From NCBI RefSeq assembly GCF_013167455.1, contig NZ_CP038328.1: a stretch of DNA of 64,000 bases, one strand, 5' to 3'. The DNA is from Escherichia coli O157:H7. Lineage in GTDB: Bacteria; Pseudomonadota; Gammaproteobacteria; Enterobacterales; Enterobacteriaceae. The notes under the pieces are model-generated. The model did no database searches and was not told the DNA's origin. It was given only the letters and a program-made list of their open reading frames with translations. Positions 30,045-33,776 of the stretch are shown here, piece by piece; position 1 is the stretch's first letter; each line of letters opens with the position of its first letter. The translations under genes were made by a program, and so were the position numbers.

Positions 30045-32105
30045 ATGCTACCAAAAGCCGCCCGCATTCCCCACGCCATGACGCTTCATGGCGATACGCG
30101 CATCGATAATTACTACTGGCTGCGGGACGATACGCGTTCTCAGCCGGAAGTCCTGGACTACCTGCAACAAGAAAATAGTTACGGTCATCGGGTGATGGCC
30201 TCACAACAAGCCTTGCAGGATCGCATCTTAAAGGAAATCATCGACCGCATTCCGCAACGAGAAGTTTCTGCGCCCTACATCAAAAATGGCTACCGCTACC
30301 GGCATATTTATGAACCAGGCTGTGAATATGCTATCTACCAGCGTCAATCGGCGTTCAGTGAAGAGTGGGACGAGTGGGAAATATTGCTCGATGCCAACAA
30401 GCGCGCGGCTCATAGTGAGTTTTATTCGATGGGCGGAATGGCGATTACGCCCGATAACACCATTATGGCGCTGGCAGAAGATTTTCTTTCCCGACGCCAG
30501 TACGGCATTCGTTTTCGTAATCTGGAAACAGGTAACTGGTACCCGGAACTGCTGGATAACGTTGAACCCAGCTTTGTCTGGGCAAATGACTCCTGGACTT
30601 TCTACTATGTTCGCAAGCATCCGGTGACGCTGCTGCCTTATCAGGTCTGGCGTCACGCCATCGGTACGCCAGCATCGCAAGATAAACTGATTTACGAAGA
30701 AAAAGACGATACCTATTACGTCAGCCTGCATAAAACGACCTCAAAGCACTATGTAGTCATTCATTTGGCCAGCGCCACCACCAGTGAAGTTCGCCTGCTG
30801 GACGCGGAAATGGCAGATGCCGAGCCGTTTGTTTTTCTGCCGCGCCGCAAAGATCACGAATACAGCCTTGATCACTACCAGCATCGTTTTTATCTGCGTT
30901 CCAACCGCCACGGCAAAAACTTTGGCTTATACCGTACCCGTATGCGTGATGAGCAACAGTGGGAAGAGTTAATTCCGCCACGCGAAAACATCATGCTGGA
31001 AGGGTTTACGCTGTTTACCGACTGGCTGGTGGTTGAAGAGCGTCAGCGCGGGTTAACCAGTTTGCGCCAAATTAACCGCAAGACCCGGGAAGTCATTGGT
31101 ATTGCCTTTGATGATCCAGCCTATGTGACCTGGATTGCCTACAATCCAGAACCTGAAACCGCGCGATTGCGTTATGGTTATTCTTCCATGACCACACCAG
31201 ACACTTTGTTTGAACTGGATATGGATACCGGTGAGCGTCGTGTATTAAAACAAACAGAAGTTCCTGGTTTTGATGCGGCGAATTACCGCAGTGAACACCT
31301 GTGGATAGTCGCCCGTGATGGTGTCGAAGTTCCGGTTTCGTTGGTCTACCATCGCAATCATTTTCGCAAAGGACACAACCCGCTGCTGGTGTATGGCTAC
31401 GGTTCTTACGGCGCAAGTATTGATGCCGATTTCAGTTTTAGCCGCTTGAGTTTGTTAGATCGTGGCTTTGTCTACGCCATTGTCCATGTTCGCGGCGGCG
31501 GTGAGCTGGGGCAACAATGGTACGAAGACGGTAAATTTCTGAAGAAGAAAAATACGTTTAATGATTATCTTGATGCCTGCGATGCATTGTTAAAACTGGG
31601 CTATGGCTCTCCTTCGCTTTGTTATGCGATGGGCGGGAGTGCGGGGGGCATGTTGATGGGCGTTGCAATTAATCAACGCCCGGAATTATTCCACGGCGTT
31701 ATCGCCCAGGTACCGTTTGTTGATGTTGTAACAACGATGCTTGATGAATCAATTCCTCTTACCACTGGTGAGTTTGAAGAGTGGGGGAATCCGCAGGATC
31801 TGCAATATTACGAGTATATGAAAAGCTACAGCCCGTATGACAACGTCACCGCACAGGCTTATCCACATTTACTGGTAACGACCGGTTTACACGATTCTCA
31901 GGTGCAATATTGGGAACCGGCAAAATGGGTCGCTAAGTTGCGCGAGCTGAAAACCGATAACCATCTTTTATTGCTCTGTACCGACATGGACTCAGGCCAT
32001 GGCGGTAAATCTGGTCGCTTTAAATCGTACGAAGGCGTAGCGATGGAATATGCTTTTCTGGTCGCGCTGGCGCAGGGAACATTACCCGCTAGGCCTGCGG
32101 ATTAG
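30045..32105 (+). CDS. ptrB: Oligopeptidase B (S9 prolyl oligopeptidase family)
   Basis: 686-aa ORF; serine motif GGSAGG. Confidence 0.9.
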
Positions 32106-32764
32106 GTATTTTCCAGATAATGTTTCAGTGTTAAACGCAGCTCCGGGCTCATGCTGTCCAGGTTATTAAACAACCAGCGCAGATAGCCCGGATCGCGTTC
32201 GGCAACGTCGGAAACCGCTTTGCCACGGTATTTGCCAAAGGTGAAGGTCGTCATCAACGACGGACGTCCGGTTATATCGGCCATCTGTTCTGCCGTCCAG
32301 CCGGAGGTGTTCATAATATCGATAAGCAACGCGGCGGTGATATAACAGTCATACAACGCGCGGTGATGATGCAGGCCCGGCGGCGTCTGTACATTGAGCT
32401 TCCGTGTTTTATATAACGCCATATTGCTGTACTTGATCCCTGGCCACAAACGACGGGCCAGTTTCATAGTGCAAATCCACTCACCGGGCATCTCAGGCAG
32501 TACGCGGCGGTCAAAGCTGGCGTTATGCGCGACATACCATTCACTACCGTAATAGTGTGGGATCACATCTTCAATCCACGGTTTATCGGCGACCATGGCT
32601 TCGGTGATGCGATGAATCGCCATCGCTTGTGGACTAATAGGACGATCGGGGTGCACCAGGTGGCTCATGGGGTTGACGATTTTCCCGTCAATGACATCAA
32701 CAGAGGCAATCTCAACGATCCCTCCCTGCAAACCGCAGGTTTCTGTATCGATAATGCGCAACAT
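32102..32764 (-). CDS. exoX: Exodeoxyribonuclease X (DnaQ-like 3'-5' exonuclease)
   Basis: 220 aa from the internal ATG ([12 protein letters not shown], Exo I motif). Confidence 0.85.
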
Positions 32765-32787
32765 GGCATGCTCCAGGCCGAAAAAGC

Positions 32788-33444
32788 CTAGCGTAATGGA
32801 ATGATATCGCCTTGCCAACCCTGTGATGAACGCTGACCGACTAACAATAATGAACCACGATCGGCGCGAACGATGAGACGACCATGTTCATCCCATAGTG
32901 CACTGTTACCACGGGCATTTGCCATCAGCACAGCAATCGAGTACTGATGTGAAAAAAATTGTAAGCGACGGGCCGATGCCAGCAGGTCGGGTTCTCCCAG
33001 ACATTGCCCTGTCGTAAACAGTGAACAGGTCGGGTCCATATCCATACCTTGCGGTTGTTCATCGACCACCGTGATGGTTCTGGAACGACGGCCCAGACAT
33101 GCACCATGACTCTGATGGTAGATCCCAGGCGTTTTTCGCCACGGTGCGAACACCGCAATTCCACGAATAAAGCGATCGTTATATTCAACGGGAAGGCCGG
33201 CAATGATGGTCATTCGCCAGGTCGTTGCGGCATAACAAAGCGGGTCTAACAGTGAGAGATCGGGTGGGGCAGGAAGGGCACGTCGCGAATAATCACACCC
33301 CAGTAAAGAAAGCGATGGAAAAACTAACAGCTGACATTGTTGCCTGGCGGCGGCCCTCACAAACTCCAGATGATGAGCTACCTGTTCGGTGAGTGAGGTT
33401 TTACGAGGCTCATATTGCGCTGCTGCAACTTTCCAGAACGACAT
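32788..33444 (-). CDS. yobB: Carbon-nitrogen hydrolase family protein YobB
   Basis: 218-aa ORF. Confidence 0.8.
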   Translation of the reverse strand: MSFWKVAAAQYEPRKTSLTEQVAHHLEFVRAAARQQCQLLVFPSLSLLGCDYSRRALPAPPDLSLLDPLCYAATTWRMTIIAGLPVEYNDRFIRGIAVFAPWRKTPGIYHQSHGACLGRRSRTITVVDEQPQGMDMDPTCSLFTTGQCLGEPDLLASARRLQFFSHQYSIAVLMANARGNSALWDEHGRLIVRADRGSLLLVGQRSSQGWQGDIIPLR

Positions 33445-33545
33445 AATGACTTCCTTTTCAAAATGACTGCAAATTATGGGTGCGGTTTAGAAAATACTCA
33501 TAATTTAGCAGGCGTTATGTAAGAAAGTGTAACTCTGTATAAGTT

Positions 33546-33776
33546 TTATTTAAGTTTGGGCTCGTAAGGTAAACGTGACAGATTGACCGAAGCCAAACGG
33601 TGGGCAATAAGCCGCTCGCGAAACCAGCTGCGCAAATGTTCAGGCTGTTCACGTTCAACCGCTTCAGCGATCACTGGCATATTGTAGCGTTCTTTAAATG
33701 CCACCCCGGCCGCCGCCAAATCGACATTCACTTTATCCATTTCTGTTTGATCCAGTTTAGCCAGATTCTTCAGCAT
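33546..33776 (-). CDS. holE: DNA polymerase III theta subunit
   Basis: 76 aa from the internal ATG ([27 protein letters not shown]). Confidence 0.85.

Follow-up and report, generated by a model that had tools for sequence, protein, structure and literature searches.

Why should the gene that encodes theta, a subunit of DNA polymerase III (Pol III), be found close to the gene for a second exonuclease of the DnaQ type, with a presumptive hydrolase between the two? The question is raised by a stretch of 64,000 nucleotides (nt) from Escherichia coli O157:H7 (contig NZ_CP038328.1, RefSeq assembly GCF_013167455.1; the whole stretch is referred to below as the window), in which three genes follow one another on the minus strand. 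These are holE, encoding theta [76 amino acids (aa); 33546..33776], yobB, encoding a short protein of the carbon-nitrogen hydrolase family (218 aa; 32788..33444) and exoX, encoding exodeoxyribonuclease X (220 aa; 32102..32764), a DEDDh 3'-5' exonuclease of the DnaQ fold with an ExoX-like C-terminal domain. An original prediction, made from the sequence alone, took the juxtaposition of theta, partner of the epsilon (DnaQ) proofreader, with another DnaQ-family nuclease to suggest a functional link.

The explanation we favour, with a probability of about 0.62, is that holE, yobB and exoX are genes independent of one another, on a common strand through ancestral synteny, and do not constitute a three-part machine. 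On this reading, holE, with an upstream region of its own, would supply theta to the Pol III core through epsilon; exoX would supply a stand-alone 3'-5' exonuclease with a redundant role in mismatch repair; and yobB would supply a short, fast-evolving protein of the nitrilase family, presumably an inactive passenger in this lineage. Transcription in E. coli would be at most loosely shared, a sigma-70 promoter just past holE driving yobB-exoX and a second site before exoX contributing, with read-through from holE as a possibility. The row is an ordinary, already annotated one, and the locus is textbook E. coli. What can be added is context: an old linkage of holE with exoX that appears operonic in some genera, the apparent decay of yobB and a likely promoter for exoX.

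Linkage of holE and exoX, and theta without ExoX

A theta-alignment scan of species-representative genomes gave 455 loci. The best 80 of these were examined, all of them from the Enterobacteriaceae, and other families were added singly (Pantoea, Yersinia rohdei and a record labelled 'Serratia liquefaciens') to give 83 loci with both genes. In all 80 Enterobacteriaceae loci holE is followed downstream by exoX on the same strand, and the same-strand linkage holds in 83 of 83 when the other families are included. The adjacency of the two genes is old, reaching at least the Enterobacteriaceae, Erwiniaceae and Yersiniaceae. It does not stand out from its surroundings, however. The block yebE-ptrB / exoX-(yobB)-holE / yobA-copD-yebY is kept whole in the 80 Enterobacteriaceae loci, and holE and exoX are linked with no greater constancy than are their neighbours ptrB and yobA-copD-yebY, which are unrelated in function. 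The synteny survey bears out the pairing of holE with exoX in the proposed three-gene cluster (83 of 83 loci), but not the membership of yobB, which is absent from 29, and the equal conservation of the neighbours counts against reading the pairing as a sign of common function.

Theta itself is a small family, with 180 cluster representatives (50% identity) at E <= 0.001 among 1.84 billion proteins, and a review gives its distribution as the enterobacteria and epsilon as its sole listed partner (PMC3290774). Away from the Enterobacteriaceae, the distance between holE and exoX varies widely. It is 3 nt in Pantoea, where ptrB is again convergent, and 78 nt in the record labelled 'Serratia liquefaciens'. 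In Yersinia rohdei (L092:5099-8413) the two genes are 1525 nt apart, and a gene for an alpha/beta hydrolase on the opposite strand and an open reading frame (ORF) of 50 aa lie between them. In this species a ferritin gene is also found between copC and holE, the slots on either side of holE both taking insertions.

Each gene is also met without the other. Theta is not confined to places where exoX is present, as Sodalis sp. Psp, Pantoea sp. Aalb and plasmids demonstrate. The first two are reduced symbiont genomes from different families in which holE adjoins ptrB (L090:6001-6594 and L094:5001-5609), and no remnant of exoX was found in the 360-380-nt gap between holE and ptrB of either. A further chromosomal theta gene (66% identity; L083:5001-5237, Logan SRR29213549) has as its neighbours yniB, a gene of the dicarboxylate-symporter family and pncB, and neither exoX nor ptrB was found within 5 kb of it. 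In Candidatus Gillettellia holE is placed elsewhere, and conversely exoX occurs on a Rahnella megaplasmid that lacks holE.

Theta homologues are present on 4329 of 72556 plasmids, mostly from Klebsiella, and an ExoX-like gene is present on 125 plasmids; theta homologues also occur in 34 phage records, that of P1 hot included. The plasmid genes are typically located in the conjugative leading region among ardA, ssb, parB, psiB and psiA (examples of mobile theta genes are L096:4989-5243, and L086 and L087, both 6001-6234). This leading-region position suggests a role for theta early after transfer to a new host. It is evident that theta both works and spreads in the absence of ExoX.

Promoters and junctions within the row

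A single holE-yobB-exoX operon would fit the shared strand and the short gaps in the window, 101 nt between holE and yobB and 23 nt between yobB and exoX, but it was rejected in view of a sigma-70 promoter and a promoter-like site inside the row. The first of these comes from genomic SELEX (systematic evolution of ligands by exponential enrichment), which located TATACA-16-CATAAC in the spacer between holE and yobB as a constitutive sigma-70 promoter and assigned it to a yobB-exoX operon (Shimada et al. 2014, PMC3946193). The identical string is present in the window at 33514..33541 on the minus strand, 5 nt past the holE stop codon.

The second site is predicted from sequence. It reads TTGGCA-17-TACGCT (32790..32818, minus strand; -35 hexamer at 32818..32813 and -10 hexamer at 32795..32790) and falls within the final codons of yobB, with 25 nt between it and the downstream ATG of exoX. 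The form TTGGCA/TTGGGA-17-TAnnnT is present in 54 of the 83 loci. In seven loci that lack yobB (from Klebsiella, Raoultella, one Enterobacter sp. and the 'Serratia' record, with spacers of 78-124 nt), the hexamers and their spacing are invariant and the 17-nt spacer has diverged, which is the pattern expected of a promoter. It seems that exoX has a conserved promoter of its own within the 3' end of yobB, and the short spacer in the yobB-less loci looks like a relic of that 3' end kept for the sake of the promoter. A stricter consensus promoter scan of the region missed this element and returned nothing useful. In five loci (L056, L059, L071, L073 and L080) yobB is extended at its C-terminus (228-236 aa as called), and in the final 60 nt ahead of exoX another promoter-like string, TTGACG...CATAAC, within the extension takes the place of TTGGCA-17-TACGCT.

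No terminator-like site was found after holE in a terminator scan of the window, so read-through from holE into the genes beyond is possible. The loci from other genera show how close the two outer genes can come. The holE stop codon and the exoX start codon are separated by 3 nt in Pantoea and by 11 nt in 12 loci from Kosakonia, Phytobacter and relatives; five loci have 23-33 nt here, and six (from the Klebsiella oxytoca group, from Raoultella and from the 'Serratia' record) have 78 nt. The distance is 108-541 nt in a few more, 780-903 nt where yobB intervenes and, at the extreme, the 1525 nt of Yersinia. A spacing of 3-11 nt or an ATGA overlap is found in about 15 of the 83 loci. The Kosakonia junction reads TAAtGGAGccaggcATG, that of Pantoea is TAAgccATG, and in two of the twelve 11-nt loci, those of Phytobacter, the exoX ATG overlaps the holE TGA as ATGA (such tight junctions are at L016:6229-6245, L037:6229-6245, L008:6229-6245 and L093:6229-6237, in Phytobacter, Kosakonia and Pantoea). 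Judged by these junctions, holE and exoX are likely to form a tight two-gene operon with translational coupling in Pantoea, Kosakonia and Phytobacter. At most, this would mean co-expression of two DNA-fidelity genes in the three genera.

Such co-expression could itself have been selected, without any contact between the products. If co-transcription of holE with exoX were advantageous, the E. coli arrangement would be a loosened form of an ancestral holE-exoX operon, and junctions of 3-11 nt or ATGA in at least three genera of two families, the lack of a terminator-like site after holE and the common strand in 83 of 83 loci would all be in keeping with this. We regard it as unlikely. The promoter-like element close to exoX in 54 of the 83 loci and the mapped E. 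coli promoter between holE and yobB speak against it, yobB belongs to the CpxR envelope-stress iModulon and not with the replication genes (PMC7657598), a gene on the opposite strand has entered the pair in Yersinia, and unrelated flanking genes are equally syntenic. Independent genes in an inherited order, with transcription at most loosely shared in E. coli, remains the explanation that we prefer.

Theta and ExoX as possible partners

Theta joins the Pol III core via the exonuclease domain of epsilon, and we know of no role for it past a modest stabilisation of epsilon. ExoX is a distributive 3'-5' DNA exonuclease that is active alone and has a redundant role in mismatch repair. The identities first given to HolE, YobB and ExoX are secure, the family models scoring far over their curated cut-offs. 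HolE matches PF06440 with 131.3 bits (cut-off 34.6) and NF008207 with 163 bits (cut-off 97) over residues 1-76 of 76, and over the same residues it matches the theta chains in PDB entries 1DU2, 2AE9, 2AXD and 2XY8 (E = 2.3e-46, phmmer against PDB), which makes it the theta whose binding to epsilon has been characterised by experiment. ExoX scores 462 bits with the equivalog model NF005937, for which the cut-off is 202, and is matched by PF00929 at residues 4-147 and by PF20600 at residues 174-203. Compared with the crystallised ExoX of K-12 (4FZX) there is a single difference in 167 residues, H38 for R38; codon 38, at 32651..32653 on the minus strand, specifies His in the O157-type window and Arg in K-12. 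The DEDDh residues are all present (D6, E8, D85 in the motif NASFD, H134 and D139), and D6, E8 and D139 are metal ligands (PMC3753628).

It is conceivable that theta also docks on ExoX, whose DnaQ fold is almost that of the epsilon exonuclease domain, at a surface equivalent to that which it occupies on epsilon, and stabilises or modulates the enzyme, the gene pair supplying both partners. If so, theta, a dispensable and long puzzling subunit, would gain another client, in mismatch repair and recombination, and the replicase would be tied to a repair exonuclease. Structurally, epsilon has its nearest relative in ExoX (PMC3753628), the two genes are adjacent in 83 of 83 loci with both and appear translationally coupled in Pantoea, Kosakonia and Phytobacter, and a position of holE next to a paralogue of dnaQ is improbable by chance. 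Nevertheless, a physical complex of theta with ExoX is not supported, and we consider it most improbable. ExoX is stable and active without theta: it was purified as an active monomer (PMC3942315) and was crystallised alone, the structure paper making no mention of theta (PMC3753628). A search of the available papers for holE with exoX found no report of an interaction. Moreover, holE is kept where exoX has been deleted and rides on some 4300 plasmids without exoX, and in E. coli, Salmonella, Citrobacter, Klebsiella and Yersinia the two genes are split by other DNA and have separate promoter-like sites.

Structure prediction and co-evolution were also used. HolE was joined to ExoX by a Gly-Ser linker of 30 residues and the fusion of 326 residues was modelled by AlphaFold2 with a paired alignment of 47 species. 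Both parts were folded, with a predicted local distance difference test (pLDDT) score of about 90 for theta and 70-90 for ExoX, and the predicted template modelling (pTM) score was 0.50, a value left uncalibrated since the control was unfolded. It is close to the value for one rigid domain of 167-220 of the 326 residues, and the relative placement of the two parts was not confident. The positive control, epsilon with theta [HolE-(GGGGS)6-epsilon186], for which the alignment was mostly unpaired and block-diagonal, came out unfolded (pLDDT 37.8, pTM 0.26). A mirror-tree correlation of distance matrices for 57 species gave no excess signal between HolE and ExoX (r = 0.54, partial 0.14 given PtrB, below the values for HolE with PtrB, YebY and CopD), though the test is a weak one with HolE so short and highly conserved.

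Several considerations weigh against the independence of the three genes. ATGA overlaps and 11-nt Shine-Dalgarno junctions often couple genes of interacting proteins. As the epsilon-theta control was unfolded, the AlphaFold2 result for HolE with ExoX cannot count against a complex. The loci inspected, about 90 of the 455 with theta, come nearly all from one family. Finally, E. coli has eight members of the DnaQ family in all (PMC4636137), and by our own post hoc estimate the chance of finding holE beside another of their genes is about 2 x 7 / 4300, or ~0.003. Even so, it is very doubtful that theta had its origin, or at first became fixed, as the upstream cistron in an operon with exoX and that it has kept a binding to ExoX, and a positive result for binding of theta to ExoX is unlikely. 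The functional link suggested in the original prediction survives as far as the adjacency of holE and exoX goes, this being universal in the 83 loci and accompanied by apparent coupling in several genera; the promoters inside the row and the retention of holE without exoX speak against taking it further.

YobB, the borders of the row and the known systems

YobB matches PF00795 with 101 bits against a gathering score of 23.2, the best stretch being residues 5-113, on profile positions 1-112 of 256. A search of PDB with the single YobB sequence found nothing, and a family profile was required. With a profile of orthologues, only the first ~110 residues align to solved enzymes of the nitrilase superfamily, 'vfPElsLtG' of the profile aligning with 'fPElsviGy' and 'fPEvfipGy' in these enzymes; the corresponding string in the window is VFPSLSLLG. 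The Glu of the nitrilase 'FPE' motif is catalytic, being part of a Glu-Lys-Cys triad. By profile alignment, its position in YobB is occupied by Ser44 (codon TCG, 33313..33315, minus strand), giving FPS for FPE. Among 54 orthologues and the window protein this column contains Ser in 25, Glu in 25, Ala in three and His in one, with one lacking a match to the motif. Ser is found in Escherichia, Salmonella and most Citrobacter, and the orthologues of these three genera have in common the loss of Glu, to Ser or Ala; Glu is kept in Enterobacter, Kluyvera and most Buttiauxella. As for the catalytic Lys and Cys, the C-terminal half of YobB aligns to no solved nitrilase, and no Lys or Cys column is invariant among the orthologues. 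On these alignments E. coli YobB is probably not an active C-N hydrolase and may be a pseudoenzyme.

The gene is also the variable member of the row. Among the 83 holE-exoX loci yobB is full-length in 52, partial in two (those of Escherichia albertii and one Escherichia sp.) and absent from 29, and identity to the window protein is 34-91% for YobB, as against 62-99% for ExoX and 63-99% for HolE. It is probably a decaying passenger that has been lost in relatives. Separate decay events are visible: the E. albertii gene has an internal deletion, that of the Escherichia sp. has lost ~50 aa, and Cedecea colo retains only N- and C-terminal relics (sites L006:6355-6630, L003:6313-6747 and L069:6357-6730). 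The notion that YobB bridges the other two in function, linking theta with ExoX through the substrate or product of an active amidase or nitrilase, might draw on its place between the two genes on their strand and on its confident Pfam CN_hydrolase match, but it was rejected and is scarcely credible for a gene that is absent or degenerate in so many genomes retaining holE and exoX, and for a protein with Ser at the catalytic Glu, a resemblance to nitrilases only in its N-terminal half and a rate of evolution far above that of its neighbours.

The row is bounded by two genes on the plus strand. ptrB, for oligopeptidase B (686 aa; 30045..32105), is the convergent neighbour of exoX, and yobA, for a CopC-domain protein (33915..34289), is the divergent neighbour that bounds the cluster beyond holE; both were identified from family models (NF007511, 1599 bits, for the ptrB ORF; NF007636, 263 bits, for yobA) and from the RefSeq annotation. 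An overlap of the exoX and ptrB ends at 32102..32105 had been pointed out in the original prediction and is read directly off the sequence: the two coding sequences overlap tail to tail by 4 nt (TTAG), and their stop codons, TAG of ptrB at 32103..32105 and TAA of exoX as the complement of 32102..32104, have 2 nt in common. Elsewhere, too, these 3' ends usually abut or overlap: among 80 loci the distance between them is -4 nt in 26 and -19 nt in 16, and for most of the remainder it is 0..38 nt. The coordinates and common minus strand first given for exoX, yobB and holE are likewise exact, by the ORF list and by the RefSeq annotation of an E. coli record with 100% identity. Several O157-type chromosomes match the region 31900..34300 at 100% identity, and of 5426 complete E. 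coli genomes all but one (5425) have the locus, with unchanged annotation. An Rfam search of 29800..35600 found no RNA families.

Comparison with known systems places each part of the row. One counterpart is the yobB-exoX transcription unit of E. coli K-12 described by Shimada et al., with which the window shares the promoter string and the gene order. holE is treated there as separate from that unit, and a second promoter-like site upstream of exoX is added here. YobB resembles the nitrilase superfamily (PF00795) in its N-terminal ~110 residues, which align to glutamine-dependent NAD+ (nicotinamide adenine dinucleotide) synthetase and nitrilase domains and contain the motif FP-x-LS-x-G. It differs in its length, 218 aa compared with ~260-350 aa for the solved standalone chains, in the Ser at the Glu position and in its C-terminal half, the expected place of the catalytic Lys and Cys, which aligns to no solved member.

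The model for any contact between theta and ExoX is the epsilon-theta complex of Pol III (DnaQ-HolE; PDB 2XY8, and 2IDO with Hot of phage P1), and the HolE of the window matches the theta chain of this complex over its full length. The nearby exoX encodes a DEDDh protein of the DnaQ fold that is reported to be 33% identical to epsilon and superposable upon it at 1.9 A (PMC3753628). In contrast to epsilon, however, ExoX is without the C-terminal segment that binds alpha and the clamp, is not a subunit of Pol III, digests double-stranded DNA alone and is a stable monomer; and whereas the contact of epsilon with theta is established, one between theta and ExoX is not known to have been reported and was not predicted with confidence here. 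The mobile theta homologues, Hot of phage P1 and those of conjugative plasmids, belong to the same family as HolE (PF06440) and are 52-67% identical over most of the protein. They lie among ardA, ssb, parB and psiB or among phage genes, with no gene for a DnaQ-like exonuclease alongside, and they presumably act on the epsilon of the host, as published for Hot in work cited in PMC2528190.

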